DNA from: Lama guanicoe
Taxonomy: Eukaryota
Assembly: GCA_013239625.1 (NCBI GenBank)
Contig: MU053588.1
Coordinates: 1,451,988 to 1,515,987, forward strand
Direction: 5' to 3'
Length of the DNA: 64,000 nucleotides
This document shows positions 6,985 through 35,314 of the stretch, one piece after another. The notes under the pieces are model-generated. The model was given only the letters and a program-made list of their open reading frames with translations. It was not told where the DNA came from and searched no databases. Position 1 is the first letter of the stretch. Each line of letters starts with the position of its first letter. Position numbers and translations under genes: made by a program.

Positions 6985-7128
6985 CTAGGACAGAACGACC
7001 TGCACGATCACACTGGAGTTGGGCAGATAGATTCCATAATGTTTGGAACAGAACTCCATTTCACGGACCCAGTGTTCAAGAGACACAAAGCGGACGCCCT
7101 TCTTGAGGTTGGAGAACACATGGCTGAC
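6985..7128 (-). CDS. FBXO27-like: Copy 1 last coding exon (144 nt)
   Basis: cctacag| [47 protein letters not shown]. Confidence 0.93.
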   Translation of the reverse strand, partial: VSHVFSNLKKGVRFVSLEHWVREMEFCSKHYGIYLPNSSVIVQVVLS

Positions 7129-9590
7129 CTGTAGGCACAGAAAGAGGTAAGTCCCATTGTGCCATGGCCTTGTCCTCAAAAGCTGAGGTTGGGGCCTTCT
7201 GGCAGGTGGAATTTTCCACAGATGGCTGCAACAGCACCTCCAGTGCCCCCTGTACTTCTAGAATCAGACCACTCCTCATCCAGAGGTGGCGTCTAATCCC
7301 CACTCCCCTTGAATCTGGGCGGGTTTGCTTGTAACCAAGAGTGTGGTAGACATGATGCTGAGTAACTTTCACCTAGTGGCCTCCAAGGCTGGGTCAGAAA
7401 GGCAACGCAGCTTCTGCTGGTTTCTCATTCTGCTGGTCGGAACCCTCATGGGGGAGCCCTGAGCCCCCAGGAAGCAGTCTGACTGGCCTGAAGCTGCCAT
7501 GCTGTGAGGAAGCCCAAACTAGGCCACGGACAGAGGTCCCACAGCCAAGCTCTGAGACTAAACCAGGAGATGCTGGCCACCCACCAGCTGCTGTGTGCAC
7601 ACTGCACCCAGCCTGCCCCCAGCTCCAGCCAGTGTCTAAATGCAACTGTGTGAGAGTTAGAGCCAGAAGCTCCCAGCAGAGCCCCACTCAGAAACCAGGA
7701 GAGGTGATAGAATCACTGCCGTTTGTATTAAGCCACTAAACTTTAGGGCAAATTTTTTATGGAGAAATAAATTGATCATCGTAAGCCCCACATTCCTTTC
7801 CCCTCACCCCAGAGACTCACCTCAAGGAAGGAAGTGTGTCTCCTGTTCCGGATGGGGAAAAGCGTAGTAGAAAATTGATCCAGAATGGCCTGGTTGGCAT
7901 CTAGAAGTTGGATGGTTAGCCGATATATAGAGTTAATGTCTTGTTGGGCTGTCCACCTGTGGGAAAAGGGAGAACTTGAAGGCTGGACTTACCACCCATC
8001 TCTTTGGCTGGGCCTGCCTCCTCCACCTGGCTGGACTTCCCATGTGTGCAAATCCAAAATGTGGTCCCAGGGACTAGCACCATCTCTGTCACTTGGGGGC
8101 TTGGCTCACCTGCACTGATGAACTAGCAGTGCTCTTCAAGTTACTTCCCCCATAGGCTTGTCCAAAGGTATGGTCTTTGCCCTCTGCTTTGGGGAGGTAA
8201 TCTCTGGACCCTTTGAATATTATGCTGACAGGAGTATCTTTGTTTGCCTGGGGTCCTTGGGTCATATTGGATGGCCTGCCAATGTGATTTGGTGGCTGCT
8301 GGCCACACCCACATAGATGGTCTTACAATAGGGAACAGCCACCCACGGAACATAGGAGTTCCTAAGCAGCTCACACTTCAAAGCACTGGCTGTGTGCTTG
8401 ACATATAACCTTGTCTTATGAAGATAGGGTAACTGAGGCACATTGACTTGCCCCACAAAGCTGCAAAGCCAGGGTGCAAACCTGAGGGTCTGGCTCCAGA
8501 ATCTGAACTCTTACCCAACGATCCTATCTTGCCTCGTCCTGAAGTAAGAATCGTCTCATTCACAGACAAGTCTGAATTGAGCCCAAGTCCTCTGTGTTGG
8601 ACCCTGCCTGATATCTTCCAATCCAGTTCCCTCTGGGGGATAGGATAGGGGTTCAGGGAGGGCACTCTGCTAATTCCTAAAACTCTGATGGTGATTAAGT
8701 CATTTCCCGACCTGCTTTATCCTAAGGGATTGTGTTAGGAGGCCTGGATGGAGGAGTCACCTGTAAAAGAGCAGGGCTCAGCCCAGGGCTGTTTTTATCA
8801 TCACACTCACCAGTCAGAGAAACAAATCTCAATCTTGCCACTATCCAGGAGTTCAGGCCAGAAACCCTCCTCCTCCAGGTCCAACACTTGCTTCTTCTTA
8901 TGATACCACCTACAAAAGAGGGAGAAAGGTGAATGAGACTAGGCAAAGACTCACAACCAACCCGCTGGCCCTTGGGGGATAAAAGGTATTAACCTGTAGG
9001 GAGACCGGAAGCAGACCCGCAAAGGGGCCCTAGGCATAACCTCCCAGCTTTCCTCCATAGCCAGGTCGCCCAAATCCTGCACCATCATTGATTTCTGGAG
9101 GCTTCCTGTTAAAGAAAAATATTTGTCTCGGTTACTCGTCCTCCAGCTGCCCGCGGTCCCAGGGAGAAGTCCAGTGGTTTCCCGTGTGGTCCCGCCCCTC
9201 CAGCCCCTCCCACCGGCTCCCTTGAGGACGATCCCCTTTCCTGGGCTCCCCACCTTCTCTCTCACGTTTGCACAGCAGGTTGCGTCCTATGGGTCCGCGC
9301 GCGCAGAAGCGGCCCAGGAGGCAGGCACTGGCGGCGTCGGCGCGCGGCAGGCAGCTGCGGACGACCGGCCACAGGGCGCGGTGGTCCCGGGCCAGGATCT
9401 TCAGCCACAGGCCCGGGGCGTCCACCAGGGCGCGCCAGCGCCGGCACACCTGGCGGCAGCGGCCGAGCAGCGTGCGCGGGGGCAGGAGGCTCAGCACCGC
9501 CAGGAGCAGCTCCGGGGGCAGCTGGCTCAAATCCAGCACGTTCTCAGATTCCGTCTCCAGCGGGGGAACCCTGGAGGCCGAGGCGTCCAT
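6985..9590 (-). CDS. FBXO27-like: FBXO27-like F-box/FBA-domain protein, copy 1, intact, 275 aa; coding exons 9254-9590, 8994-9105, 8811-8909, 7821-7956, 6985-7128
   Basis: Manual splicing gives 337+112+99+136+144=828 nt in one open frame with GT-AG introns and ATG in gagaccATGG context. Motifs [58 protein letters not shown] and [22 protein letters not shown] match my recollection of FBXO27. Confidence 0.93.
7215..7780 (+). mobile_element. MaLR (MLT1-like) LTR in the last intron; paralogs at ~20535-21075 and ~31525-32060
   Basis: Motifs ccccttgaatctggg, gccatgctgtgaggaagccca and ttaagccactaaa..ggggcaatttgttatgcagcaata. Confidence 0.65.
7821..7956 (-). CDS. FBXO27-like: Copy 1 coding exon 4 (136 nt)
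   Basis: cccacag| [45 protein letters not shown] |gtgagt. Confidence 0.92.
8811..8909 (-). CDS. FBXO27-like: Copy 1 coding exon 3 (99 nt)
   Basis: ttttgtag| [33 protein letters not shown] |gtgagt; one codon longer than copies 2 and 3 (96 nt). Confidence 0.92.
8994..9105 (-). CDS. FBXO27-like: Copy 1 coding exon 2 (112 nt)
   Basis: ttaacag| ... TACAG|gttaat; [38 protein letters not shown]; same length in all three copies. Confidence 0.88.
9254..9590 (-). CDS. FBXO27-like: Copy 1 first coding exon (F-box domain)
   Basis: [10 protein letters not shown]...[11 protein letters not shown]; donor G|gtgggg; acceptor ctccagcag| 26 nt upstream of the ATG (exon starts at 9616). Confidence 0.92.
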
Positions 9591-9843
9591 GGTCTCCTCT
9601 CCAGGCCTGACTCTGACTGCTGGAGAGCCAGTATCAACATCAGGGACCTGCAGCCTCCGCCAGCCCCACCCCTACCACCCGCATCTCAACACTGTCAACC
9701 CTTAAGTTCCGTCAGCTGTCTTCCCAACTTCACCACTATCAGCCGGACCTTGCCAGCAGTCCATGTGAGCCCCGCTTCCGCCATGTGCACCACCAAACCC
9801 AGCAGCCAACCTCCTCCGTGGCCTCACCAACCGCCAGTCTTAC

Positions 9844-9930
9844 CCTGCATCTCCTCCAGTGCTCCTCGCCAGGGGGCTCTCACTTTGACTCAGGGGCCCC
9901 CATCTCCACTGCCCTTTTAATTGGCCAGGC
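9844..9930 (-). promoter_or_regulatory. Putative non-coding first exon and core promoter of copy 1
   Basis: Donor CAGG|gtaaga at 9844/9843, with paralogous donors near 22577 and 35602. AT-rich element ggccaattaaaa near 9915-9926. The transcription start is not determinable from sequence. Confidence 0.5.
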
Positions 9931-11008
9931 CCTCCCTTCTTAATACCCAGCACCAAGCCCCACCCTCCCTCCCAATACTCCCTATTACCAGTCAGTCTCT
10001 GCCTGCCCCTCCCTTCTTACTACCCTGCTGCCTCCGCCCTCTGCCTTGCCCAATCTTACAAGCCAGCCCCTCCCCGTCCTGCTCTCCCATACTCTCTAGT
10101 CACCCCCTTTTCAGGGTATGTTCTGACCCCTGGGTAACTAAGGTAGGAATCAGATGCGGCAGAGGAGGGAGGGGGCAGAGGCGCTGAGATCCAGAATCTG
10201 TCACTAGTCTTTGGGACCAGTGGCCCCTTGGAGTGTCCCTAACCTGCTGTAAGGCATTTGGTGCTGAACAACTGCAGTTATTTTGGTCAGGCTTCCTGCA
10301 TAAGCCTCATATCTGTTCCCTTCTGTAAAAGTTCCCGCCACCTTTAAGCACCGGGCATCACTGTCCCTGAGATCATTGCATAGGAGAAAACATGCTTCAG
10401 TAGGAAACAAATGTATTTCATCTGACTTCCTAAATGAGTGCTCCAACCAGTAATGACCCCAGCCGGCCTCATGGAGAGTTTTATTACTAGTCAGGGTAGC
10501 AAGTCCCTGAGGTAGGAATTGCTATGTCATCATTTCACATGTGAGAAAACTGAGGCCAAGTGACCTGTCCAAGGTGACAGCACTGGGATTTTAACCTAGC
10601 CTGGCTGTCTCTAGAATCCTGCTTTTAACCTCTATACTAACTCTATCCAATAAAAATGAAATGCAACCTACTCATATAATTTTGAGTATCAACAAGTAAA
10701 ACCAGACATGGATTCTGACCCAAATGGAACCTACCTTCTAGGGGGAGAGACACAGTAAACAGGAGGCAGAGTAAGCAAATTATGTACTGTTGGGGAAACC
10801 ATTAAAAGAAAAATCTCCTGTGAACCCTGAATATCCTTTCCATAAATGCAGAAAAGAATGAAACACTTTTATTATTGAAGAAGCATTAAATCAGACTATA
10901 AAGCACATGGGCCATGGTGACAGTAGACGTGATGTGTAAATTATGTGGTGTGATCAGCTCTGCGGGGAAGTAGAGCAGGGAAGGGAATGGTGGGTAAGCC
11001 ATCTGAGT

Positions 11009-11110
11009 GGGGAGATACAGCTCAGTGGTAGATAGGTGCTTGGCATGCACAAGGTCCTGGGATAAATCCCCAGTTCCTCTGTTAAGGAAAAAAAATTAAA
11101 AATAATTAAA
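11009..11110 (+). mobile_element. tRNA-derived SINE (vic-1-like)
   Basis: A box tacagctcagtggtaga, degenerate B box, A-rich tail; absent from the paralogous flanks. Confidence 0.85.
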
Positions 11111-12975: not shown

Positions 12976-12989
12976 ATACAATCTAGATT

Positions 12990-16959: not shown

Positions 16960-18775
16960 GCAGGAGGAAGAACTCCTCTTCCATAAAACAATCACTCTTA
17001 AAGAGTTCACTTATAGACTTTTATTCCATGTATCTCTGTCTCATTATTTTTGAAAATATCATCATACCAACTTGATTTTCTTACTGACAAATTTCGTAGC
17101 AGAGATGACATGAATTTACTGACTTATAGTAAACCTAGGCGCCAAGTAAATGTATTATGTTTAATGCTGATGACTCTAAAGACAACTCCACACTAATCAA
17201 ACCAATAACTCAAAGTTGTTTCACTTACTGAAGATGAATCCTAGAGCACGTGATCCTTTAAAAATCTGAGTTAGTTTTGGGTAATGTTTAGAAAATATTT
17301 GATTTTTAAGTGGTTACTTTGAAGTCAATTACAGCTCTTTTACAAATGAAATTTTGATAATATTATCTGGATGTACAAATATATCATATTTATAATGTAC
17401 ACGCAGACAGACAGACATCCAGGTAGACACAACCACACTAATCAAACCAATATCTCATAGTTGTTTCACTTACTAAAGATGAATCCTAGAGCACGTGATC
17501 CTTTAAAACTCTGAGTTAGTTTTGGGTAATGTTTAGAAATATTTGATTTTTAAGTGGTTACTTTGAAGTCAATTAGAGCTCTTTTACAAATGAAATTTTG
17601 ATAATATTATCTGGACGTACAAACATATCATATTTATAATGTACACGCAGACAGACAGACATCCAGGTAGACACAGACAGAGACCTCATAGTTTTCCTGC
17701 TTGAGTTTTAAAAGGCCTTCCTCCTCCCTCTAACCCCTGCCCTTTATTTTTAATTCTTTTTTGGTATCAAGTTCTTCTAATTGAGCCAAGGCTGCAGCCT
17801 CTCAGGCAACATGGGCTGTGTCTGCCTTTCAAGGACGTGGAAAGGGTTATAACTTCAAGTTGTCTCCCAGGAGTCCTATTTCTCTTTTGAAAAGATGTTT
17901 TATCAAGCTGGCTTCTTTTAACTGTGCATGCAAAAATCAGTTTGGGAATGTCAAAAGCACTCCATCCTGGCCATTTGAGGGTTAGATTAAGTACTTGCAA
18001 GTATTGGCTCCACACCAAGTGAGAAACCATTAGTCCTCTTCACCTAGGAGATGTATCAGTACTCTCTCAAGTCTAGAAGTCTTAAGATCACCGTTCAAAT
18101 AAAAGTCATGGACCACCACCTAATACAAGGAGCTCTGAATATAAGGAAACACTCACTGAGACACCTAAATGGAGCTGTGAAGCCGAGCTGCTCAAGGGGC
18201 CCATGCCTGGTACCGAGGGCCAGTCCAAAGTAGACCTCAGGTGGGATTTTGTGTGATCAATGTCGATAGCAATGTCAATGAAAATAATGATTAAACAATC
18301 TCTTATAGGAATAGAAAAGAGTTTTATCTGAGGGAAACTGAGGATTACAATCCAAAAGACAGCCTCTCAGGTAAGCTGGAGGAAATGCTTCAGAGAAGCA
18401 TGGTTTTCAACATCATTTTCTATCTTGTCAGAACAAAGACCATCAAACAAGTCAGGGAAACATTCCTTTAAGGTTATAAAAACAAACACTTACCCAGTAA
18501 GTCAGTGTGGCCTTGGCTCCTGGGAAGGGAGTTCATGCAGGGAGGACCAGCACTGGCATCCCAGGAAGGGAGGCATTTCATCTTTATTCTTTACATGAAC
18601 ATTCCTTAACTGTGATCACTGCACCCTTTACTTTAATGATCAAAGCAGACGTACAACATATGTTTGATAGGCCACACACAGGCTGTTTTAGTTACATAAA
18701 ACTTGAGTTAAATCACGTATAAGCCAGAATGACTTCCCCATACCTGAGGATGTGAAAATTTCTTTCCAGGAAAGT
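16960..18775 (-). mobile_element. ERV internal leader region plus probable LTR (~18273-18770)
   Basis: Composition and motifs resemble an antisense ERV leader and LTR; no coding motif recognised. Confidence 0.4.
17188..17675. repeat. Direct tandem duplication, period ~245 nt, two copies
   Basis: ccacactaatcaaaccaata...ccaggtagacaca at 17188 and 17433, with few mismatches. Confidence 0.95.
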
Positions 18776-19592
18776 CTAGGAGAGGGAAACTTTCCTATGA
18801 AGAAGAAGGGGAGACATGGAAAGGCTTCCACAACCTGGAGGGCCCCCCATGACGCTGCTCAGTTTCAATTCCCACCCCCTTTCTTTAATGCTTCTCAATT
18901 TTGAGGGGAACAAGAAAGGAAATGAAGTTGTGGATGGAGAGGTTAATCATAGACTCAGCTGGAGAACTCGGCTTTAGTGGGACTCAGTCACAAACAGAGC
19001 AGCTCATGCTATGCCAAACCATGGGCAACTCCATGGCCAGCTGCAGTAGGATCTCACCATTCCCCACCCCTTTCCTTTTCCCCAAATAATGGAGCCATAT
19101 TTTAGGAGGCCAGGATGCTCCTAGTAGTCCCACTACTGCCACCACTGTTTGTTTGTATGACCAAGACAACCCCCACGCCCAGATATTTGCCAGAGGGACT
19201 CGGGGGGCTCAGTGTAGAGTTGTCCTCACTCCTGAGACTCACCACAGTGGTGCAGGAAAGATGCACGTTTGAATCCTAAGAGAAAAACACACAGACAAAG
19301 ATAAGAATCCATGTGCCTCTTCCTTCCACCTTTTTCCTTCCCTGAGGGGTCCTGCAGATGGTACTCAGATTTCACCTTAAGAAACTAGAAAAAGGATGGA
19401 CAGGACCTTGGCAGATGAATGTGGAAGGCAAAGGGATTTATAGACGACAACTCTGAAGTGGGTTATGTGTAGTAATCATGTGTGTATATTTACACATTTA
19501 TATATGAGCTAATAGGAGGATCTTCTGAAAACTAGTAAAGAGAAAGAATAATGGGGAAAAAAGATCTGAGGCATTTTTGGCAAAATAATACA

Positions 19593-19598
19593 TTTATT
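19593..19598 (-). terminator. Polyadenylation signal AATAAA, copy 2
   Basis: Paralogous to 6311-6316. Confidence 0.6.
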
Positions 19599-20130
19599 AC
19601 ACATGATTGGCAGATAGATTGCTGCTGATTATTCTCTCCAAGCTTGAAAAGAATTTCAAAATAGTATAACAATTTTATACATCATATAATTTAGGGTATG
19701 GTTGGGCTCAGGGGACCACTTCATTTTTCACAGGGTAGGCAGAAACATCTGACTCCAAACTTGTTTTGAGGTAGTTGACTTTCAGCTGTGAGTCCTGGTC
19801 CCAGTCTTGAAATCTCAGGAGGTTAAGTTCACCACCCAAGGGGGCAGGAACTTTCTCAGCCATAAGGATGAGGTTCTAGTTCAGACCAAAGGAGAGGGCT
19901 TCCCAGAAGGCATCAGTAAATTTTCTTGAGCAGAAACAGAGGAGACAAGGGCAGGGGACTGGGGCCGAAACAGAAGGCCTCGGAGGGAGAGTGAGGATCC
20001 ATCCAGTTCCAGCATTTCCCTGTGCTCACCTGGAGGTCTCCACTCAGAAGGACAGGGGCTGCCTTAGAACAGCAGCAGCAGGTAAAACTGATGTAGGAAC
20101 TCCCTTCTAGTGGCTTCCAGAACCAGAAGC

Positions 20131-20191
20131 CAGGGCCCAGTAGGACCCTCAGTTGGACCCAGGGCCCAGTAGGACCCTCAGTTGGACCCAG
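20131..20191. repeat. 29-nt tandem duplication in the copy 2 3' UTR
   Basis: cagggcccagtaggaccctcagttggacc x2; single in copies 1 and 3. Confidence 0.95.
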
Positions 20192-20307
20192 GAGATCCCA
20201 GCATGCCAGGGAGCTACAAGCCCTTGATTAACAAATAGGATGTCCCAACCAATGGTCGCAGCTCCTGGAAGGCACAGTCAGGTGGTTTTGCAAGGACAGT
20301 CCTTTGA

Positions 20308-22284
20308 CTAGGACGGACGGACCTGCACGATCACACTGGAGTCGGGCAAATAGATTCCACAATGTTCAGAGTAGAGCTCCATATCCCAGATCCAGTGTTC
20401 AAGAGACACAAAGCGGACGCCCGTCTTGAGGTTGGAGAACACATGGCTGACCTGTAGGCAGAGAAAGAGGTAAGTCCCATTGTGCCATGGCCTTGTCCTC
20501 AAAAGGTGAGGCTGGGGCCTTCTGGCAGGAGGAATTTTCCACAAATGGCTGCGACAGCACCTCCAGTGCCCCCTGTACTTCTAGAATCAGACCACTCCTC
20601 ATCCAGACGTGGTATCTAATCACCTCCCACCTCCTTGAATCTGGGTGGATTTGCTTGTAACCAAGAGTGTGGTAGAGTGACTTTCTCCAAGTGACCTCCA
20701 AGGCTGGGTCAGAAAGGCAATGAAGCTTCTGCTGGTTTCTCCAGAACCCTCATGCGGGAGCCCTGAGCCCCTAGGAAGCAGTCTGACTGGCCTGAAGCCG
20801 CCATGCTGTGAGGAAGTCCAAACTAGACCACAGACAGGTCCCACGGCCAAGCTCTGAGACTAAACCAGGAGATGCTGGTCAATCACCAGCTGCTGTGTAC
20901 ACACTGCACCCACCCTGCCCCCAGCTCCAGCTAGTGTCTAAATGCAGCTATGTGAGAGTCCAGAGCAAGAAGCTCCCAGCTGAGCCCCACTCAGAAACCA
21001 GGAGAGGTGATAAAATCACTGCTGTTGATGTTAAGCCACTAAATTTGGGGGCAATTTGTTATGCAGCAATAGTTCATCATAGACTCCACTGACCTTCCCC
21101 CTCACCCTTGTCAGAGACTCACCTCAAAGATGACATTGTTTCTACACTGCCGGATGGAATAAGGTTTAGGAGAGAAATGGTCCAAGATGACGTGGTTGGC
21201 ATCAAGAATCTGGGCAATTAGCTGATAGACACAGTTCGTGCCTTGTTGGTCTGTCCACCTGTGGGAGAAGGGAGACCCTGGGGGCTGGGCTTGCTGCCAG
21301 TGCAGCTGCAATGTGCTTAAGTCATTTCTTGACCTCCTGCATCCTAAGGGGTTGTTAGGAGGCGTAAGTGAAGTCACTCAAGCAAAGGTCAGGGTTCAGC
21401 AAAAGGGCTGTTTTTATCACCCCACTCACCTGTGGGAGACGTAAATCTCCATCTTGCCACTATCCAGGAGTTCCGGCCAGAAACCCTCCTCCTCCAAGTC
21501 CAATACTTTCTTGTTGTAACAACACCTAGGAAAGGGGAAGAAAGGTCAATGAGAACAGGATAAGGACTCACAATGGCCCTGGCCCCTGGGAATAGGCCCA
21601 TTTACCTGTAGGCAGATAGGAGGTAGGTCAGATAAGGGAGTCCAGGAATGACCTGACAGTTTTCCTCCTCTGGCCAGTCGTCCCCATCGCTCAGCCTCAT
21701 CCATTTCTGGAAGCCATCTGTTAAGTTCAAAAAGTTTGTGCCCAAGTTCCAGGCCTGCCTACTGCTGCCACAGGGATGTCTCAGGGAGGTTCCCAGCGGC
21801 CCCGCCCCTCCGGCCCCGCCGGCCCCTCCGACTGGCTCCGGCGCAGCCACGCCCACCCACCAAATCCTTCCGGCCCCGCCCCTCGCCCCCTCTGGCGGGC
21901 TGGCTTGAGGGACTCCTTTCCTGGGCTCCACACCTTCACTCTCAGGTTTGCACAGCAGGTTGCGTCCGATGGGTCCGCGCGCGCAGAAGCGGCCCAGGAG
22001 GCAGGCACTGGCGGCGTCGGCGCGCGGCAGGCAGCTGCGGACGACCGGCCACAGGGCGCGGTGGTCCCGGGCCAGGATCTTCAGCCACAGGCCCGGGGCG
22101 TCCACCAGGGCGCGCCAGCGCCGGCACACCTGGCGGCAGCGGCCGAGCAGCGTGCGCGGGGGCAGGAGGCTCAGCACCGCCAGGAGCAGCTCCGGGGGCA
22201 GCTGGCTCAGGCCCAGTGCTTCCTTGGGCTCGGAAACCACGGGGGAACCCCGACCAGCCAGCCCCTGGAGGGTAAGACACCCAT
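20308..22284 (-). pseudogene. FBXO27-like: FBXO27-like copy 2, frameshifted as assembled (recent pseudogene or homopolymer error); exons 21934-22284, 21606-21717, 21430-21525, 21123-21258, 20308-20451
   Basis: The ATG at 22284 reads [25 protein letters not shown]. One extra base in the G5 run at 22241-22245 would restore a 279-aa frame. All other exons are open, with GT-AG sites. Confidence 0.8.
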
Positions 22285-23356
22285 GATCTCCTCGCCAGGG
22301 TAGGCTGTCCCTGTTGGAGATCCAGTGTCAAGACGTCAGGGACCTGCAGCGCCTCGTCCCCCAACCCCTCCCCTGCCAGCCGTACCCCAAGACTGTCAGC
22401 TCCCAAACGCTATCAGCCACCTCCGTATCCTCACCACCTCGAATTCTCTCCTCAAGTCCGCAGTCTCGCAGCTGGTCCTTGCCACCCACCCATCTCAACT
22501 CCTTCCCACTGTGCTCACCACAGACCCCAGCAGCCGACCCTCTCCGTGGCCTCAGGGAACCCCGAGGTCTAACCTACATTGTCAGCCAGCAGTCCTCGCC
22601 AGTGGGCTTTCACATTGCTTCACTCGCCCCAGTCTCTAATTCTGCCCTTTGTATTCTCCAGCCTCTCCCTCTTAATTCCCAGCACTATCTAACCCCTGAT
22701 CCCATCCTCCCTCTGACCTCCCAGTCTTTGCCCTCCCCTCCCTCCGCCTTGCCCAGACTGACCAATCAGCCCCTCCCGGACCCATTCCCTCGCCCCCATT
22801 CTCCAGACAGCCCCTCCTTGGGACGGTATTCAGACCACTGAGTAACTACCCAACCTAATCGGAAGCCTCAGAAGAGAGAGGTGGGGCACCGGGATCCAGA
22901 GTCTGTCACTCTTGGTCCATACCAGTGGCCCCTTGGAGTGTCCCTGTAAGGTGCTTGGTGCTGAACAGCTGCTGTTATTTTGATCAGGCTTCGGCGGGAG
23001 TCCTCATATTTGTTAGTTCCTGCAAAAATTCCCATCACCTTTAAAGGCTGGGAGATTACTTCACAGGAGAAAACGGGCCCCAGCAGGATTCAAGTGCATT
23101 TCTATTTGACTCCCTAAAAATGCAAGCTACACATATAATTTTAAATAACAGCAAGTAAAATGAGACGTATATTCTGGCCCACATGGAACCTACCTTACAG
23201 GGGGAAAGACACAGTGAACAGGAGGCAGAGTAAGCCAATTACATACTGTTGGGGAAATCATTAAACATAAAATCTGCCAACACCCTTTCCCCGAAATCCT
23301 CTCCACAAATGTAGAAAAGATTGAAACAGTTTTATTATTGAAGAAGTGTTAAATCT

Positions 23357-23667
23357 TGTTGCTGAATCCAAACTCATTCTGCTCGCTATACGACAGGCCA
23401 ATAAATCAGGAGATGAGGTTGGGGCAAGGAATAGCGACTTTATGCGGAAAGCCGGCAGATCAAGAGGATGGCAGACTAATGTCTTGGAGAACCATCCAGC
23501 TCTAGTCAGAATACAGCCTCTTTTTATACAAAAAATAAGGGAGAGGGTGTGGTTGATTGTTGTAATCTTCTTGCTGCAGGCATTCTTTGTTCTTGCAGCC
23601 CTCCCCGTGGGCTAGGTCATGGTGTCCCTGTAAACCTCCAGCAAAACAAAGGTTATTCTCAACTACA
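23357..23667 (-). mobile_element. Solo LTR specific to the copy 2 upstream region
   Basis: TG...CA ends, flanks atct/gtct, minus-strand TATAAAAA near 23521-23528; empty sites at ~10890 and ~36598. Confidence 0.7.
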
Positions 23668-25487
23668 GTCTGACTAATCTAATTCACATGGGCCACAGTG
23701 AGCGGTAGACGTGAAGTGTAAATTATGTGGTGTGTTGGAAGGGGATCAGCGCTGCTGGAAAGCAGAGCAGGGAAGGGAATGAGGGGTAAGCAGTCTGGGT
23801 GGGGAGACCCTGAATTCTGAGAGATGGAGTGACTATTACATGGGCTTAATTTTTTTTTCAATGCATGAATTTTCAAGAAAATGTTGACTATTGAGGTTTT
23901 CAAATGGATCCCAAAGTGGAACAAGGTAAGAGCACTGGCTCCAACAGTTCACTCCAGACCAATCTGCCTTCATCTCTACTCCCCCTACCTGACTTGGTCC
24001 TCCAGGCAATTTGAAGCAAATCTTAGAAATCATACCATTCTGTCCATAGCAGTACTTATTTTTTTTAATGTAATGTGTATACTGGAAGAATCTTTTTGAT
24101 AATAAGATTATGAAAATTGATTATGATCCAACTATGAGTTTAAAAAGTAGTTTTTTAAAAAGTTAAAAAACCTCAAGTAAGATACAAGTTCAGATACTGA
24201 CAAGTGAGTGTCTTGTCCCACTCTTGAATTTCCTCCTCGGATGTAGACTGCTGTTTCTTGGTAAAACCTGCCAGTCTGATTTGCAGGAGCAGAAAATTTC
24301 TGAGCCTCAGAGCACTGGGAGGCAGGATACACAAATAATTCCGAGGACATTAGAAGCTCCACCAACTTGGCTTCCCTGCCCTCGGTTCTCCTATCCTGTT
24401 AACAGGAGTGGGGAGGCAAGCTTCACGGTGTTTTCATTCCAGGAAAGGAACTGGACTGGCAATGGGCCCTGTGTGTAGAGGGAGGTTTGGAGGGAGCAGG
24501 TAACTAGTTAACACATCTCTTCTTTCAGAAGGGTGGGACAGATTTGAAAGAAGGCTAACTTCCTAGAGGTAGGATTTAGTCTGGACAGTCCTGGGTGTTG
24601 GTAATCTAGCTCCTTCCCCCAGGCAATTCAGCCCTGGCAGGCCCTTCTCTCCTTTGAGGGGGCGTGGCGTGTGGATATTGGTGGGGAGATGGAATTTCAG
24701 GTAAAACCCTCTCAGCTCCCCACCCAACCCAGCCTCTCGGGGGTCAAGAACAGGAAAGAGCCACAAACCCTCACAAAACTTCTTTGCCCTAAAAAAGGAA
24801 TTCCTCCTACTGAAGCTACACTTAGAAATAATCAAGACCTTAAGAAAAGTTCTGGCCAGAGGTAATTTTCTAGGTTAAACACAACAGCAACAGAAGAGGC
24901 TTTACAGATCAAAACACCAGCCTGTTCCAATGGAACACACACTTAGCAGGCTTTGAAAAGAAAGAGCTGAGAGGGACAAGTTGCTGGAAGGACCAAGGAG
25001 GGCCTGGAGGGACAGCAGTGAGTAGGGAAGGTCTGTACAAAGTGGAAGGTGAGGGGTAGGAGGGCCCTCCCTGGAGGGGGAGATGGCCCTGGAGGGTACT
25101 GAGGGGCTGCCTCCTTCCAGAGGAATCCACCATACCTAATGCCCTCAGGACTGTCTAGCCAGAATATCCAAAACAGCAGACCAGGTGAGCATCCCTACCA
25201 AGGGCTTCAGCCAGGGCTGTGGCATCTGGTGTACCACGCCCAGTAACATTACTGCATACCGCTGATGGCCCATTTTGTAATTAAAGTTCATCCCATACAG
25301 TCAAAAAGACATTAATAATTCCTAAGTGTGACAAAGATCTTTCAATTTCCTTTAATAAGGGGGAGACCTTATCTTTTAGAGATATAATTGAAGTATTTTT
25401 GGAGGAAATGATAGGCTGTCTGAGATTGCATTAGAATAATCCTTCGGAGGATGGATGGAGGTATAAATTTTAAAAAGGTTAACCACA

Positions 25488-25626
25488 GGGGGAGGGTATA
25501 GCTCAGCGGCAGAGCACATGCCTAACATGCACTAGGTCCTGGGTTCAATCCCCTGTACCTCCATTAAGAAAATAAGTAAATAAATAAACCTAATTACCTC
25601 CACCTCTAAATAAATAAAAATTTAAA
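25488..25626 (+). mobile_element. tRNA-derived SINE (vic-1-like)
   Basis: gggggagggtatagctcag..gtcctgggttcaatccc..taaataaacctaattacc; imperfect TSD at 25472-25486 and 25627-25641. Confidence 0.9.
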
Positions 25627-28239
25627 AAAAAGATTGACCACGTGAAAGGTGTTCAACTCCTTAATCAACAGGGAAATGCAAGTTAAAACCACTACACATC
25701 CACCAAAAAAACAAAACCCCAACATCATACCCAAAATAAACAAACAAAAACAACCAGTGTTATTGAGAGTGTGGAGCAATTGGTTGGAGCTCTGTTACAG
25801 CTTGTGGGAGCGAGGGTGGTAGTACCACATTGCAGAATTGTTTGACAGCACCTACTAAGCCTATACCAGGACAGGCGTTAACCTACAACACTAAAGCCAC
25901 CTAGGGGTGGGGGTAGGGATGGGACTGGAGGGAGGGGGCAGATATGGAGTGTTTGGTTTGTCACAGCTCTGATTTGAAACCTTGGCAGTCTTGGGCTTGG
26001 AATTGATGCTAACGATTTCTCTAGGCTCAATGCCAAGTTCATGGACTGCAGGTGGAGAAGGGCCAGGGGCTCAGGGCACCTGCCTCCACTTGCACCCCGA
26101 GAACCAGCTCCTATCTGAGACTGAACTCTGTCAAGTCACTGCCCTGATCAGGTGCCCCGCACGGCAGGTAAGAGGAGGGATCAGCAGCCACCTTGCCGTG
26201 GACGCTGTTCAGCTGTGTGACTTTGAGCAGGCTGCTGCCCTTCCGAAACTTCATGTTCATTTTGTAAAATGGAATGGGAGTTGAGAGGAGCTGATGAAAC
26301 AGTCCTCCTAAGACATTCAGCAAAGTGCCTAGGATGGGACACTGTTATTATTATTATCATCATGTTTCCAGGGTGGAAGGGCTTAAGAAGCATTGGCCAT
26401 CATCAAGGAGAATCCCAGTAGCCAGCGACCTTTCCATCTCATGCCAGAGACAGAGTCCCCAGCAGAAACCCACTTCTCCAGAGCAGTGACAATCACATCC
26501 CCACTAACAGCAACCTCTCCAGGAGGTGGCACAGTGCCGGGGTTCAAAGCATCAGATCTAGAGTCAGAGGCAAACAGCTCCACCGCTCCTGAACTGGGCA
26601 AGTCATACGTCTTCTATCAGAAGCTCAATTTTTTCCTGAATTAAATGTGAGCCATCACCTTTGTTCCCAGAGGTGGAAAACGATTTCCTGACGTGGTTCA
26701 TAACTGTCATGACTCATCAGCCCCTCCCCCTGTAGAAGAATCTAGTTAAAATGGAAATGTAACCCTGTGAGAAAGTGCTACATTCACTCATGTGTTCCAC
26801 AAGCATTTACTGAGCATTTATTGTTTATAGGCCCTGGGCTAGGTACTGGGGACACAAGAATGAATGCAGCAGGTAATGCATTTACACTCCTGGAGCTGAA
26901 AACAGACACTAAATAAGTAAAGATGTGAATAATAGAATATAGGAGGGTGGTAAGTATTATGGGGGAAAAATGCAGCAGGGAAGGGGCATAGAAAGTCTAG
27001 GAACAAAGTTGCAATTTCAGGCAACTGAGAAGTAGGTATTTGGGTGAATCTGAAGGGGATAAGGAATTAAGACATATCAATATCTGGGGGAGAAAGACTC
27101 TTGGAAGGGGGCACAGCAAGTGCAAAGGCCCTGTGGCAGGAGAAAGGAGCAAGAAGTCCAATGTGGCCGAAGCATAGGGATCAAACAGGAGAGTGGTAGG
27201 AAATGCACTCAGAGAGCTGATGGGGACAGCCTGTGGGAGCCTTAATATTTCCCCTTACTGAATCCTTATATAAAGGCTTTGTCCTTTGCCCTTTGGAAAG
27301 AGGGAGTCAGGAGAGTACTCAGAGCAGGGGAGGGTGCTCACAGGTGCCCTCTGCTTCTTGTGGGAAGACCTGGGGGCAGGAGGAGGAAGGGAGCAGAGGA
27401 AGAAGAATGCTGGATGATACGGGTGTCAGGGAGGAGGGGTCTGGACAAGGGCAGGGCCATTGGAGAAGGGACAAGTGGACGGGTTCTGGATAGATCAGTA
27501 AGTGGAGCTGACAGGATCGGTGGAGAATTGAGTGTGGGCTGCAGAGCCCCACTGAGGATGTGTGGGCTCTCAGGCAAATTTTTTCCCTGTGGAGTCCCTG
27601 TCTATGGAGATGATTTGATTGAAAAATGTGTTACAAAATTCATGGACACAAGTGAGTTATAGAATGAAGATTTAGAATGATGGCTCAGAAGAGGTACTTC
27701 AGTATTTGCTTATCTTTCAATCCTGGGAGGTGAGATCCTTTGATGTCCAGGTACCATTTCTTCACGTTTTTTGTTGTGAGAGGTTGTCATTAATGGCTAA
27801 TTTAATAGCCCTCATCAAGCAAAAAAGGCAGGGATGCTGTTTTTACTCACTGTTATTGCCTCTGCTGGTTTGAGTCCTGAGGCCCATTAGAGAGTTGTCT
27901 CAGCAGGTGAGTTTACCTCCTCTCCCCTTCTCTGAAGTCCTTATTTAGAAATGATTAGCATTTAAGCCAAAAATCAGAGAGGTATGTGCCCCAGCTACCG
28001 CCACCTTGGAAGAACTGAAGTATGGGGAAGAGAGGTGATCTAAAGTCAGTTGACAATTTTCAAATTTCGAAGGTCATTCATTTAGCTCTGCTGACATCAT
28101 CTCTCATGTCTCTGACTCATCCATTGTGCCCCTGTGACCACCAGCTTCCGGTGATTCTCTCAAAGGGTGGACTGGGCTTTGTTAATGATGACCGCATATG
28201 CAATTTTTAACAGAGAATGCAGGAAAGCATTAGCAGGAT

Positions 28240-28635
28240 TTTTTCTTTTAGTTTTTGTTGAAGTATAATTGATTTACAATGTTGTGTTAATTTCTTGTGA
28301 ATAGCATAGCCAATCAATTATACATATATATATTCCTTTCCATATTCTTTCTCATTACAGATTACTGCAAGATATTGAATATAGTTCCTTGTGCTATACA
28401 GTAGGACCTTGTTTATCAGTTTTATGTATGGGAGTTAGTATCTGCAAATCCAAAACTCCCAATTTATCCCTCCACACCCGCTGTCCCACCCATCCCCAAC
28501 GCTGGTAACCATAAGCTTGTTTTCTATGTCTCTGAGACTGGCTCTGTTTTCTAAATAAGTTCTTTTTTTTTATATACATGATTCTATGTATAAGTGGTAT
28601 CATATGGTATTTTTCTGTCTCTTCCTGGCTTAAGT
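28240..28635 (-). mobile_element. L1 3' UTR, antisense
   Basis: Same family as 12409-12975. Confidence 0.85.
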
Positions 28636-30597
28636 AATAACAAGCGAATCCTCCTTTACAGGGTTTTAAAAAATTAGCCCTTGGAGAAGAGAGGCAAAGT
28701 CTACTTGGCCCTTGGCCTAGAATGTGGGGAGCGGGTTGGGAGAGCACCCTGGCTGCTGGTGGCCTGAATGGGGTGCATGGATAAAGGCACCTGTGCTACT
28801 CCCACCGTGCCTTTGGGTGCTATGGGCTGGAAGCAGCAGAGAGATGATAATTGATGTACAGACCCACCTCCTAGGCTCCAGCCTAAGGGATGGTGGCAGA
28901 CAGGTGACGATCCAGAACCCTGAACTTGTCCTGTGTCCAGCTGAGCGAGTGAAAGGCATCCCAAATCAGTATGCCAGCGCTCTTCTGGCAGCCAGCCCGT
29001 GGGAGCCATCAGCTTGCCAATCTACTCACCATGGGACCCCAGGATGACCCTATTAAGGCAAGAGTCCTAGAGTGCCTCTGGGCTTCCAGCCGACCCCATG
29101 CACCAGGGTTGGTGGTGGAGGTAAAGGCAGAGCCCCTTAATTGGGCAAGAAACAGGATGAGACTCACTTAGGTCCTGATCTAAAGTCGAGGTCCATGCCC
29201 AGAGAGCCCGCAGCCCTGGCTTAGAGAATTTCCAGGAAAGTGCTACATAGGGTGGGGACCCCTTCCTGGGTAAGGATTCTCTTGATGGGGTGGGAGAGAA
29301 ACAGAAAAGTCCTGGGGGACTCCAAGGTTTCTGGTCCAAGAACAGAATAGATTTTGCTACTTTTTACTGAGACAGGATGTATGGGGAAGAAGCTGGTGGG
29401 GAAGGGGTCAGAAAATCAAGACTCAATAGGAGGGAAACTGAGGCTCAGAAAGCCAAGTCCAAAGGCATAAAGTAAGGATGTGAACCTGTTTTGTCTCACA
29501 GCCTCCAGGCAACACCACCTACCCTGGCCCCAGGGGAGGTACCATTTTTAAGCATTTGATACACTAGGCCTGGTTCTGCACGTTTCATAAATGATTTTGT
29601 TTACTCTTCCCAACAATGGACACTCTGATCCTTTTTTAGGGGGAACAAGGGGAGACTCAGAGAGATCTTGCTCAAGGTCTCAGACTGAGGGGGTGGCAGG
29701 CATCAGTCACGTGTGTGCTCCCAAAACCATTTCTCCTCTTCCATCCTGGCTCAGGCTTTCCTGAGGCTTCCTCCTCCTGGAATCAGGGAGCCGAGGGTCT
29801 CATCTTTGCCATCCAAGGGCCCCAGGGCTAATTCCTACTATTTTATTTGCATTGTTCAGACCCAGCTAGCCCCAGCTCTCACCTGGTGGCCAGCTAGGAG
29901 GTGTCAGAAGTGGGGACAAAATCTTCCTGGGTCCTGCTTCCATTGCCCCACGTAGGGGGCAGAGCAGGTAGGCGTGGGGCACCCAGGACTGGCCAGACAT
30001 GTGGGACCTGCTACCCTAGCTGTCTCAGGAGGCTGTTACCTGGAGAAGGCAGGGTCTTCTGGGGCTGGGACAGCTGTGAGCAGCAGGAGGCCTCTGTGTC
30101 TGCAAACTCGAATACTGGGGTTGCACTGGTAGCAGGATGCTCGTTTGCCCAGTTGGCACCCCAGCAAGTGAGCTGGAGACCAGGAGGGAGCCCCCAGTCC
30201 CAGCTCCTGGCCCCCTAACTGACCAGTCCAGGCCTAGTTATGCCCTGGCAGGCAGGTCCTCGGGGAGCAGGAGAAACACCAGAAAGTCACAATGTGGTGT
30301 CACTGTGACACTATACCCACATCTGTCATCCGCCTAATGCTTTTAAACCTGATTGATAATCTTTGCAAGGATGCTTTCCTTAGGCCTTGGGAAATAGGGG
30401 TCTAACTCTTCCATTCCTTCTACTGGAGAAGACCTTGCACTGTTGTTTTCCTCTGTAGAGTTTTCCTTCCGCAACTGAGACACTCCTTGCTCTGAACCCA
30501 ATAGTCAGGGAAGACAGCACCACTGTGTTTGGATTTAAAAGATCTGAGGGAAAACAAAAAACAAAGAGATCTGAGACACTTTTGGTAAAATAATACA

Positions 30598-30603
30598 TTT
30601 ATT
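30598..30603 (-). terminator. Polyadenylation signal AATAAA, copy 3
   Basis: Paralogous to 6311-6316. Confidence 0.55.
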
Positions 30604-31291: not shown

Positions 31292-34200
31292 CTAGGACAG
31301 AACGACCTGCACGATCACACTGGAGTTGGGCAGATAAATTCCGCATTGCTCAGGCTGAAAGGCGAAGTCCTAGATCCAGTGTTCAAGAGACACAAAGCGG
31401 ACACCCGTCTTGAGGTTGGAGAACACATGGCTGACCTGTAGGCAGAGAAAGAGGTAAGTCCCATTGTGCCATGGTCTTGCTCTCAAAAGCTGAGGTTGGG
31501 GCCTTCTGGCAGGAGGAATTTCCCACAGACGGCTGTGACAGCACCTCCAGTGCCCCCTGTTCTTCTAGAATCAGACCACTCCTCATCCAGAGGTGGCGTC
31601 TAATCCCCACTCCCCTTGAATCTGGGCGGGTTTGCTTGTAACCAAGAGTGTGGTAGAGTGACTTTCACCAAGTGACCTCCAAGGCTGGGTCAGAAAGGCA
31701 ACGCAGCTTCTGCTGGTTTCTCCAGAACCCTCATGGGGGAGCCCTGAGCCCCTGGGAAGCAGTCTGACTGGCCTGAAGCCGCCATGCTGTGAGGAAGCCC
31801 AAACTAGACCACGGACAGAGGTCCCACGGCCAAGCTCTGAGACTAAACCAGGAGATGCTGGTCAATCACCAGCTGCTGTGTACACACTGCACCCACCCTG
31901 CCCCCAGCTCCAGCCAGTCTCTGTATGCAACTATGTGAGAGACCAGAGTGAGAAGCTCCCAGCAGAGCCCCACTCAAACCAGGAGAGGTGATAGAATCAC
32001 TGCTGTTGGTATTAAGCCACTAAATTTGGGGGGCAATTTGTTATGCAGCAATAGTTCATCATAGGCTCCAACGACCTTCCCCCTCACTCCTGTCAGAAAC
32101 TCACCTCAAAGATGACACTGTTTCTATGCTGCTGAATGGGAAAAGACACAGGAGCGAAGTGGTCCAGGACGGCCCTGTTGGCATCTAGAAGCTGGACGGT
32201 TAGTTGATACATACAGTCAGTGCCTTGTCGGTCTGTCCACCTGTGAGAGAAGGGAAACCCTGAAGATGGACTTCCACCTCCATTTATTTCTTTGGGTGTC
32301 AAATGGCTTCCCTATGGATGCAAACCAATATGTGGTCCCTGGGACTAGCACCAGTGTCACCTGGGAGCCTGACCCCACTGCACACCCAATGAATCCATCT
32401 GCACAAAACCAGCTCCCCAGCTGGCCTGCCTGCACAACTGCTTCAGAAGTGATGACCTAGAGCAGAGCTCTTCACAGCACCTCCTCCCCGTGTTATTTCT
32501 TATCCATGTTTCACTGGTGGCAAATGATGTACAATGTGTACAACAATGATATCTGAGATACAATTTTCTTATCAGTCCTTTAAAAGGATCCAGGGGAATC
32601 CAAATCGATGATGGGATACCCAGCAACATTCAAAGAAACAACATCCAATGACCGTCAATGGTAAATGGGTAAATTATGGCATATTCACATAATGGAACAT
32701 TATACAGCCATGACAGTAAAGTAACTGCAGCTACATGCAATTATGGGTGAACTTACATGCTATTGAGAGAAGCCAGATACAAACTATATACTGTATGGCT
32801 CCATATATGTTAAGTATAAAAATGCACAAAATTCATCTACTGTAACAGAATTCAGAATTGTGCTACACTTGGGTTGGTAGTGATGGGGAAAGGGGCATGA
32901 GGGATGCTGAGGGTGGGGTTTTCTGGCATTTTCTGTCATTGATGGGGGGGCTAGTATGGTGAATGTCTTCACTTTATAATAATTCATTCAGTTGCACTCC
33001 CAAGAAATGTTCATCTTTGATGTTAGAAATTAAAAATTTAAGAGTAATGAGCTGTATAAATTCACAAACATGTATCTACTTTACAGACACTTCACATCAC
33101 TCCACTTCTCAGCGTCTATTTTAATTCTCCACAGAATTTTGTTCTCATGTTAATATATTTTCATGTTCTTCGGATTTACCTTTCACACTATTTGGTGGCA
33201 ACCACATACAAAGAATATACATTAAAAATTTTAAATTTTCTGTGACCATAAAGCTCTCAATGTTAACACTTTTTCTTTTGGACTGAATTATTAGCTACTT
33301 GTAATTTACAGACACTGCCCCAGATTGGAGTCATCTGGAATCTTGAAGATACTTTGTAGAAAAGAATTTAGCCTGGTCCAAATGTATGGCCTTTGCCCTC
33401 TGCTTCTTTGGAATATTATGCTGACAGGAATGTCTGTTTGCCTGGGGACCTTGGGTCATACTGGATGGCCTGCCAATGTGGTTTGGTAGCAATTGGCTGC
33501 ATCCACATGGGTAGTCTTATAACGGACGCCAGCCCCCCAGGAGGACTAACAAGATGACATGGGATGCATCACACAGTGTCAGTTGACTGGAGGCTGAGCT
33601 GAGAAACATGAGAAAGCCCCAATAAAGGCTCAGGTGAGCTTCCCTGGTGGCAGTATCCCATGCACATGTCACACATGATGCCAGGACAGTCTTGTGTCCC
33701 GACTCCAAGGGCAGAAGAGAGCAATGGAAGTCTGGCATTGGATTCTTCCCTTGGATGCTATCTGGTGACCTTCCCCTTGGCTGATTTTCATCTTTATCTT
33801 TTCCCTGTAATAAACTAAATTATGTATACTAGTTTTCAGTGAGTGCTATGTCTTTCTAGTCAATTACTGAGCCTGAGGGTGGTTGTAGGAACCCCCTACA
33901 CTGGCCACTGAAAGGCGGTCTTGGGATTGTGCCCTCTAACTTTGTAGTTGGCTATAAAATTCTGAGAGATGTTGATGCCTGGCTCCCTCACCCCAGATAC
34001 TTTGATTTAATGGGTATGCAGTGGGACCTAGGCATCGGGAGCTTTATACAGTCCTGGGCGATGTCTGGCAATATTTGGGAGTCACTGATTATTACCATGA
34101 AATGGTACATCATTGCTCAAAGTAACACAAACATGCTACAATAGTTTGATAAAAGATTAAATTACAAAGAGAAGTTGATTGCAAATTCATCTGCTAATGA

Positions 34201-35314
34201 TAGGGAAAACTGAGACACATTGACTGACCCAAGGCCACAAAGCTGCAAAGCCAGAGTGTGAACCTGGGAGGTCTGGCTCCAGAATCTGAACTCTTACCCA
34301 ACCATCTGGAATTGTCCCCTCTTAAAGCAAGGAGCATCTCATCCACAGACAAGTCTAAGTTGGGCCCAAGTCCTCTGTATTGGACCTCACCTGACATCTT
34401 CCAATGCAGTTCCCTCTGGGGGCTAGGAGAGGGGTTCAGGGAGTGCACTCTGCTAATTCCTAAAGCTCTGATGGTGGTTAAGTCATTTCCTGACCTGCTA
34501 TATCCTAAGGGGTTGTTGTTAGAAGGCCTGAAGGAAGTCACCCATGAAAAGTCAGCACTCAGCAAAAGGGCTGTTTTTATCATCACACTCACCAGTGAGA
34601 GACACAAATCTCAACCTTGCCACTATCCAGGAGTTCCGGCCACAGACCCTCCTCCTCCAGGTCCAACACTTTCTTGTTGTGACAACACCTAGGAAAGAGG
34701 GAGAAAGGTGATGAGAACAGGTAAGGACTCACAACCGCCCTGGTCCCTGGGGAATAGATGCATTTACCTGTAGGTAGATGGGAAGCTGGTCTGGGAAGGC
34801 GCCCCACGCAGGACCTCATAGTTTTCCTCCTCTGCCCAGCCATCCCCACCGGTCAGCATCGTCCACATCTGGAAGGCATCTGTTAAAAAGGTTTGTGCCC
34901 AAGTTCCTTTCTGCCCACCAGCCCAGGAATAAGTTCCAGGGGATTCCGGCGCAGCCCTGCCTCTCTGCATCCTCCCACCGGCTCCCTTGAGGACGATCTG
35001 CTTCCTGGGTTCCCCACCTGTGCCCTTAGGGTTCTGAAAGAGATTGCGTCCTATGGGTCCGCGCGCGGCAGGCAGCTGCGGACGACCGGCCACAGGGCGC
35101 GGTGGTCCCGGGCCAGGATCTTCAGCCACAGGCCCGGGGCGTCCACCAGGGCGCGCCAGCGCCGGCACACCTGGCGGCAGCGGCCGAGCAGCGTGCGCGG
35201 GGGCAGGAGGCTCAGCACCGCCAGGAGCAGCTCCGGGGGCAGCTGGCTCAGGCCCAGCGCCTCCTCCGGTTCGGGCTGCGGCGCCGGCCTGCCCCTGGAG
35301 GCAGAGGCACGTAT
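31292..35314 (-). pseudogene. FBXO27-like: FBXO27-like copy 3, unprocessed pseudogene; exons 35018-35314, 34768-34879, 34593-34688, 32105-32240, 31292-31435
   Basis: The start codon position reads ATA (35312-35314). A 43-nt frameshifting deletion lies at 35060/35061. An in-frame TAG at 31370-31372 replaces copy 2's TGG. Splice sites are retained. Confidence 0.9.
33350..33950 (+). mobile_element. MER21-like LTR in a copy 3 intron; partial paralog at ~8140-8370
   Basis: Motifs ggcctttgccctctgc..gtttgcctgggg..cttgggtcata; aataaa near 33808. Family name is from recall. Confidence 0.5.

Follow-up and report, generated by a model that had tools for sequence, protein, structure and literature searches.

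Tandem FBXO27-like genes of the guanaco: an F-box exon probably shared by gene conversion beside the diverged FBA domains of old artiodactyl paralogues

How can neighbouring genes be identical, base by base, over most of one coding exon and agree in about a third of the residues of the next one? This question is raised by a tandem array of FBXO27-like genes in a 64,000-nucleotide stretch of the guanaco (Lama guanicoe) genome (contig MU053588.1, positions 1,451,988 to 1,515,987; hereafter, the window). Human and mammalian FBXO27 (Fbs3) is described as an N-myristoylated lectin acting as receptor of an SKP1-CUL1-F-box (SCF) ubiquitin ligase for damaged lysosomes (PMC6389600). Our analysis points, with a probability of roughly 0.6, to old tandem copies of FBXO27 that share their F-box through gene conversion, carry diverged loops in the FBA domain, and are predicted to act as SCF receptors for distinct non-glycan targets at embryonic genome activation.

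Self-comparison of the window revealed three related units, all on the minus strand and named here A, B, and C, together with the upstream part of a fourth copy, which begins just left of the window. This comparison itself reaches four copies; copy number and synteny beyond the window were taken from protein records. Copies A, B, and C each show five large coding exons with GT-AG ends in the same layout, as a first-pass annotation of this DNA had described for its three paralogs, and a 7-nt coding mini-exon lies upstream in every one of them (Table 1). The F-box tract that the same annotation had reported as identical is an exact match of 241 bp between A and B, 190 bp between A and C, and 197 bp between B and C. 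In unit alignments of 82-84% identity, the longest identical runs were 241, 207, and 205, against maxima of 67, 92, and 82 in 5000 shuffles. In the exon after the F-box, A and B agree in 12 of 36 whole codons, or in 13 of 38 residues with two split codons included, which is the figure given before. Within the tract, all of the approximately 69 synonymous sites were identical, where about 18 differences would be expected from the synonymous divergence (dS) of the other exons. Protein constraint alone cannot account for this, and the constancy of the F-box is ascribed to gene conversion, rather than to purifying selection on SKP1 binding alone. The G+C content at third codon positions (GC3) is 97% in the tract vs. 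64% in the FBA exons, and of the 27 full 84-aa F-box cores from four camelid species, 26 are identical. The identity of the F-box exon across camelid copies, as far as these comparisons go, likely arises from repeated gene conversion. Intron 4 is also 91-93% identical between copies, compared with 65-89% for introns 1 and 2, and thus forms, with the 3' flank, a second homogenised region. Conversion over the F-box has been described for primate FBXO6 and FBXO44 (PMC3984280), and partial escape from conversion for ruminant CEACAMs (PMC7042247). As a separate observation, one ruminant paralogue (P0139, P0176, P0180) has its own F-box core and seemingly escaped conversion with its three neighbours.

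An identical tract could also be produced by collapsed or copied reads, and the pairings of 5' heads and bodies in the RefSeq alpaca models do differ from those of the window and of camels: P0007 combines the head of C with the body of A, P0004 the head of A with another body, and P0006 the body of B with the exon end of A. However, the same 84-aa core is present in all paralogues of the four camelid species and in several assemblies, whales and ruminants have shared cores of their own, and copy C carries a private deletion inside the tract. In addition, contigs from an independent run (X13; all read-contig comparisons covered positions 8720-10300) stop at 9289-9295 and 9500-9529, which are the tract edges, so the tract is no artefact of this assembly; in this run the A head appeared at single-copy depth, its contig continuing into a head resembling P0010/P0089. 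An assembly artefact was, thus, rejected as largely refuted already.

In trees, the two parts of the gene gave different histories. The F-box core tree (61 rows, 84 columns) grouped by lineage, with 5 label changes, the minimum, and with camelids at 100/99* and ruminants at 100/97*. The tree of FBA exons 2-4 (49 rows, after dropping 14 of 63 with exon 2 or 4 missing or read through an intron), rooted on eight canonical orthologues and with FBXO17 outside the trees, required 11 label changes and grouped older paralogues across lineages: copy A with three whale genes (99/97*), and pig, hippo, baiji, and ruminant genes together (100/98*). A camelid-only FBA clade was rejected narrowly (approximately unbiased test, p-AU 0.044), and much of the tree backbone was without resolution. 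The tract is, therefore, identical at synonymous sites and groups by lineage, whereas its flanks group by paralogue. The FBA domain of copy A is 67% identical to a sperm-whale orthologue, compared with 60% among camelid paralogues and 55% to horse FBXO27, and FBXO27-like sets were returned by protein searches for pig, hippo, whales, and ruminants. The lineage-specific expansion proposed at first is ruled out for camelids by paralogues older than the camelid-whale split. By the evidence of these trees, the copies are old artiodactyl paralogues, with an F-box homogenised lineage by lineage through gene conversion.

Descent from FBXO27 at its own locus is indicated by the clade of all artiodactyl rows apart from the eight canonical orthologues (100/100*) and by weak matches of flanking pieces to tenrec, lynx, and dolphin FBXO27 models. 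The CpG-island segment at the far end of the window matches weakly the N-terminal pieces of the tenrec and dolphin models (E-values 3e-6 to 6e-4), which makes it likely the ancestral FBXO27 upstream region. Part of it (63598-64000) has exon-like donors and a CpG-decayed twin at 29871-30274, and may be a far-upstream promoter or first exon. Measured from elephant, FBA distances are 0.21-0.36 for canonical orthologues vs. 0.84-1.61 for the artiodactyl copies. No canonical FBXO27 was found in artiodactyls among the best 120 of 207 hits to the horse FBA domain and in four canonical clusters; among those 120, the best full-coverage artiodactyl match (60%) falls below opossum (64%) and turtles (61-62%). 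Canonical FBXO27 was, on this evidence, likely lost in artiodactyls, although clusters, large ones outside the four surveyed, can hide members.

Several observations on other genomes are worth recording here. No bat appeared among the best 120 of 207 relatives of horse FBXO27; either bats lost the gene or their members are concealed within clusters. In Octodon degus, a single scaffold carries three FBXO27-like models (P0290, P0291, P0294), and in bears a second copy is present (P0135, P0292); these duplications are independent, keep the Trp loop in all cases, and show no artiodactyl-type change. Models P0107, P0101, P0182-P0186, and P0246, from dromedary, deer, musk deer, and takin, lie on contigs that differ in length from those of the array. 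They may be retrocopies, as would be in keeping with expression in the germ line or the early embryo; P0107 and P0101 retain an older form of the F-box core.

Regarding the state of the genes, one intact, one frameshifted, and one dead copy had been announced, and the first and last of these assignments stand. Copy A (9850-6985) has an open frame of 287 aa once the mini-exon is counted, and PF04300 (FBA) matches three of its four post-F-box exons. The frameshift of copy B is less settled: its own-exon ATG at 22284 misses the frame by one base, but with an acceptor at 22264 the F-box is read in frame again, and the candidate far exon, proposed from sequence and a camel model, gives with the B exons an open frame of 289 aa; judging from this, B may still be open via an alternative first exon. 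The far exon is contained in an exact repeat of 286 bp between the upstream regions of the fourth copy and B (1451-1736 / 25001-25286), which is accompanied by a second one of 137 bp (1050-1186 / 24601-24737). Two lesions disrupt copy C: a 43-bp deletion inside the tract, at about 35061 and flanked by GCGCGC repeats, and a TAG at 31370-31372. A missing start codon was considered for C too, and was ruled out by the in-frame ATG of its mini-exon; its start reads MQGA, and that of A MQAV or MDAS. The lesions of C in this genome differ from those of the C model of C. ferus (P0011), and paralogue sets differ among lineages, so the birth-and-death turnover in the original proposal, as well as its constant F-box next to variable FBA domains, hold. 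Separately, exon 3 of copy C (34593-34688) is nearer to alpaca P0012 than to P0011 and P0028, the models of C, suggesting that conversion acted here once more in recent times.

It could be argued that these are relaxed, decaying camelid duplicates, in which the identical F-box simply results from conversion in a CpG-rich exon and drift in the FBA exons is near-neutral, whatever the cattle genes do. Nonsynonymous divergence (dN) in exons 2 and 4 (0.23-0.52) is indeed near dS and intron divergence (0.24-0.49), C is dead, B lacks a secure start, and expression evidence is thin. With respect to Camelus, A differs at 7 of 162 FBA positions, B at 4 of 161, and C at 12 of 93, compared with 13 of 198 in frame for a non-coding read-through yardstick, so that neither A (p 0.49) nor B (p 0.08) shows significant constraint after the Camelus split, and C does not differ significantly from the yardstick either (p 0.08). 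Against decay, the FBA frames of A and B remain open after about 0.3 dS, exon 3 has a dN/dS of 0.15-0.60, copy A is closer to a sperm-whale orthologue than camelid paralogues are to one another, and between Camelus and South American camelids B shows the few differences given above and paralogue E only 1 in 92 (p 0.04). In simulations of drift, an FBA frame survived open in 0.1-0.7% of the runs with assumed indel rates and in 6.5% without indels, a result in favour of A and B having been functional over most of their past. Decay, consequently, appears unlikely to us.

The opposite possibility is a repertoire driven by conflict, with FBA loops racing the proteins of viruses or of selfish elements, perhaps of retroelements that are active when the genome is switched on. 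It would agree with the long FBA path from elephant to the artiodactyl copies, with a dN/dS of 1.1-1.6 in exon 2, with the concentration of change in substrate-end loops, and with copies being born and lost. However, pairwise dN/dS values over 158-159 FBA codons of the three copies were 0.80 (0.52-1.33), 0.88 (0.54-1.46), and 0.55 (0.35-0.92), and no estimate in these comparisons of three DNA copies was significantly above 1. These comparisons, thus, do not demonstrate positive selection on the substrate domain, as the variable exons diverged about as far as introns 1 and 2. Moreover, between bovids and deer, orthologues retain 88-94% identity both over the FBA domain and over the W280 loop, which is stasis, and the sole knockout gives developmental arrest, as reported in PMC11313146. 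An early burst followed by constraint fits better than a running arms race, to judge from orthologues that retain paralogue-specific loops. The functional data encountered, all from cattle, speak for genome activation and not for the pathogens suggested in the earlier proposal; conflict as a whole, selfish elements of the early embryo included, we regard as quite improbable.

The nature of the targets was approached through the sugar-binding loop. N-glycan binding by Fbs1 is reported to require F177, Y279, and W280 (PMC4603797); aligned to Fbs1 and horse FBXO27, these positions read Y/F/C in copy A, Y/L/Y in B, and Y/F/Q in C, so that none of the three retains the pocket. The comparison was extended to 143 named artiodactyl rows (135 spanning the loop), 70 rows from other mammals (63 spanning), and 22 from non-mammals, counts that include isoforms and repeat assemblies and are not independent. 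At the W280 position, Trp is found in 24 of the 135 artiodactyl rows, compared with 63/63 in other mammals and 22/22 in non-mammals, and a canonical-like loop (at least 11 of 15 positions like horse FBXO27) was found in 0/135, 60/63, and 20/22, respectively. Among canonical orthologues, loop identity reaches 0.98; for 16 artiodactyl paralogues it is 0.39, and for eight orthologue pairs 0.69-1.0. By this measure the loops differ between copies, yet stay near constant within each paralogue. The MGxxxS start is present in 45 of 70 models from other mammals and in 0 of 33 camelid ones; the own-exon ATG of copy B carries it but stands out of frame. For lysophagy, FBXO27 is described as depending on both myristoylation and glycan binding (PMC6389600). 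From these replacements we infer a loss of glycan binding and of membrane targeting in the copies, and their intact F-box would still allow docking to SKP1.

The copies might nevertheless still be lectins, having retained sugar binding and split the glycan specificities of FBXO27 among them. An FBA beta-sandwich fold is predicted, with Fbs1, FBG3, and Fbs2 as the best sequence and fold matches and nearest structures, A, B, and C all retain an aromatic residue (Tyr) at the F177 position, and the W280 position holds Trp in the 24 rows mentioned and Tyr in B. The remainder of the invariant loop is, however, gone in 135 of 135 rows, and the start that FBXO27 needs at damaged lysosomes, together with glycan binding, is absent from the camelid models; retained sugar binding is, thus, very unlikely. 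The predicted local distance difference test score (pLDDT) of the fold model was 58 for copy A and 60 for the horse control, modest in both. Low values over exon 2 of copy A were also considered as a sign of decay, an idea rejected because the horse control is equally low there.

The time of action is suggested by published cattle data. Four adjacent minus-strand cattle genes on chr18 (48.710, 48.725, 48.764, and 48.782 Mb) rise at the 8-to-16-cell step (PMC12522504). Two tables of PMC11313146 label all four 'up_8c', with rises of 7-16 log2 units; in another table three of them are 'notDEG', and one table repeats the numbers of the four genes under another label. The three neighbours of the FBXO27-like gene would be other paralogues, in view of strand, spacing, and the four ruminant types. 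Cattle LOC132342749 is reported as abundant at the 8-cell stage, and its editing reduced blastocysts to 11.4%, compared with 36.3% (PMC11313146). Two cattle FBXO27-like protein groups, one of them P0127 of our trees, have values only at the late 8-cell stage (highest), morula, and blastocyst, in decreasing order (PMC13012080). The published tables, then, place cattle members among the genes expressed from the zygotic genome at its activation. A sheep member of the family is recorded from fetal heart (PMC9932081), which shows that expression extends beyond the embryo. As an observation apart, the cattle cluster lies approximately 0.55 Mb from LEUTX, a genome-activation gene in the same table (chr18 48.7-49.3 Mb; PMC12522504).

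In camelids, a run from RNA labelled reproductive system (X1) yielded a 151-nt contig with the exact exon 2-exon 3 splice of copy A (depth 2.4, 3 differences). Over the same interval of positions, RNA run X2 gave no contig of copy A and X7 unspliced pieces only, although absence from contigs proves nothing. A promoter scan detected no DUX or K50 homeobox motifs within 700 bp of the three mini-exons; the motif forms TAATCC and TAAYCYAATCA are those given in PMC12522504.

Taken together, these data would fit a sequence of five steps. A head-to-tail duplication of FBXO27 in the artiodactyl ancestor, shown by the FBA trees, would have been followed by a fast divergence of the FBA domain, with loss of the myristoylation start and, mostly, of the W280-type pocket, and then by constraint on each paralogue; this is read at the protein level, the loss of binding being presumed. 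In the third step, of which the pattern itself is seen in the data, neighbouring copies would have overwritten each other's GC-rich F-box exon, independently in the camelid, whale, and ruminant lineages, by tracts of variable reach that at times would carry the 5' head or the exon end along; GC-biased conversion may have acted at this CpG-rich exon, and all the copies would plug into SKP1-CUL1 via one common module. Fourth, a zygotic switch-on at 8-16 cells, with the protein peak at that time, is extrapolated to camelids from the published cattle data, and the receptors would then tag proteins of maternal or early zygotic origin for degradation by the proteasome. Finally, copies are still being lost, the lesions of C being different in Camelus and in this genome. 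By analogy with the cattle copies switched on at genome activation, the camelid ones likely help to destroy selected early-embryo proteins.

Several points weigh against this reading, besides the dN/dS intervals involving copy A, which include 1, and the non-significant constraint since the Camelus split. Camelid RNA support consists of the X1 contig, from one of three RNA-type runs, and the FBA tree does not resolve a camelid orthologue for the cattle gene that was edited. One editing guide translates to a motif found in 27 ruminant proteins of three paralogue types and the second would match a single type, at its exon end; with one guide in the shared tract, the specificity of the editing would rest on a single guide, and other cattle paralogues may have been nicked. 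Just one of the four cattle genes is called FBXO27-like in the papers (PMC12522504, PMC11313146), and human canonical FBXO27 is itself listed at 6-13 fragments per kilobase per million (FPKM) in control 8-cell embryos (PMC13012080). Moreover, FBXO44 is reported to keep the pocket residues without binding, so residues alone do not predict binding (PMC4603797).

A more far-reaching version, which we put forward tentatively and do not expect to hold in full, is that the artiodactyl ancestor swapped the glycan sensor FBXO27, found elsewhere across vertebrates, for an order-specific set of genome-activation SCF receptors, with one converted F-box cassette, target loops of their own, and occasional swaps of promoter or N-terminus. 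If true, the maternal-to-zygotic transition of livestock and camelids would be governed by an order-specific degradation programme that mouse and human do not reveal, and at least one member would be required for the blastocyst stage in cattle.

The features of the window are collected in Table 1. The B unit extends from about 19558 to 30274 and the C unit from 30278 to past 64000. A segment of approximately 20 kb (43398-63597) belongs to the C unit only, its flanking segments directly adjoining in the B unit. With 327 proteins as tblastn queries, no F-box or FBA match was found within this segment, nor any additional F-box or FBA exon in the 64-kb window. Small tandem duplications were detected at 17188-17675 (244 bp x2), 20130-20192 (29 bp x2.2, in the 3' untranslated region (UTR) of B), and 62857-62961 (49 bp x2.1).

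Table 1. Features of the FBXO27-like array, in window coordinates.
Feature	Position	Strand	Remarks
Fourth copy, upstream region	1..1937	-	80-91% identical to DNA upstream of B and C
Second homogenised region, intron 4 to 3' UTR	6300..7800		84-98% identical between copies; AATAAA 6311-6316
A last exon	6985..7128	-	beta9-beta10 loop, Cys at Fbs1-W280 position
A FBA exon 4	7821..7956	-	variable loops
A FBA exon 3	8811..8909	-	conserved, dN/dS 0.15-0.60
A FBA exon 2	8994..9105	-	most variable exon; ends at Fbs1-F177 position (Tyr)
A F-box exon	9254..9619	-	second ATG at 9590; Pfam F-box-like PF12937 52.1 bits, cut-off 24.3
A identical tract (probable conversion)	9289..9529	-	241 bp, 78% GC, GC3 97%
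A upstream coding mini-exon end	9844..9850	-	ATG CAG G, donor GTAAGA; yields MQAVRV start of Camelus model P0002
Copy B	20308..22310	-	exons 22264(22310)-21934, 21717-21606, 21525-21430, 21258-21123, 20451-20308; tract 21969-22209
B mini-exon	22574..22579	-	reads ATG TAG (stop at codon 2)
B candidate far first exon	25199..25249	-	17 codons, donor GTAGGG; used by C. ferus model P0009; identical twin 1649-1699
Head-to-tail junction of B/C duplication units	30274..30278		self-comparison
Copy C pseudogene	31292..35609	-	mini-exon 35609-35603; exons 35340-35018, 34879-34768, 34688-34593, 32240-32105, 31435-31292
CpG-island segment	63457..64000	-	decayed twin in B unit at 29871-30274

The array genes are annotated automatically as FBXO27-like and one cattle member has been edited; literature searches, several of them broad and with most subscription journals not covered, found no paper that deals with the array, with conversion in it, or with the replacement of the loop. 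For cattle, pigs, sheep, and camelids, in which mouse and human would be no guide, the array offers a small order-specific set of candidate ubiquitin ligase (E3) receptors that may clear proteins at genome activation, as well as an evolutionary frame for an isolated cattle knockout and a warning on a guide placed within a tract shared by paralogues. It also suggests that a conserved sensor of lysosome damage is missing in artiodactyls, and provides a clean case of concerted evolution at the domain level, with one exon homogenised independently in several lineages beside exons that retain paralogue identity.

Compared with its direct ancestor, canonical FBXO27, the array keeps the exon layout, the F-box and FBA domains, 55% FBA identity between copy A and horse, and matches in the upstream flank. 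In contrast, it is multi-copy, lacks the MGxxxS start, has a replaced beta9-beta10 loop (0/135 canonical-like), stands about four times further from elephant in its FBA domain, and includes, in cattle, zygotic genes of the early embryo. The edited cattle gene LOC132342749 belongs to the same artiodactyl FBXO27-like clade, and its guides would fit a ruminant paralogue type; in what PMC11313146 says of it, however, it is treated as a single novel gene, without array, conversion, or lost sugar loop.

Tandem clusters of cullin adaptors in eggs and early embryos are already known, and the FBXO27-like array adds a variant to them. PRAME/Pramel and Tdpoz form such clusters in cleavage embryos. The Fbxw12 cluster reportedly has a role in egg lattices (PMC13441485). 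All of them resemble the array as lineage-restricted tandem expansions of cullin receptors tied to eggs or early embryos, but their substrate domains are WD40, LRR, and MATH, respectively for Fbxw12, PRAME, and Tdpoz, instead of FBA, and the array is zygotic, not maternal, according to the cattle data, and apparently replaces a conserved parent gene. The mouse Fbxw12 cluster is itself described as a lineage-restricted tandem F-box expansion (PMC3984280). The closest parallel for conversion in the F-box region, between tandem FBA-family genes of different binding properties, is that of primate FBXO6/FBXO44 as presented in PMC3984280, a single event between two genes, whereas in the array it appears recurrent, in several lineages, with up to 100% identity and swaps of 5' heads. 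Finally, the F-box expansions of nematodes and plants, cited in PMC3984280, share with the array a stable F-box, a variable C-terminal domain, and birth and death of genes. They are of a positively selected type, whereas here dN/dS was not significantly above 1, and the array differs from them in its few copies, in an F-box probably kept constant via conversion, and in orthologues that have remained stable over tens of millions of years.

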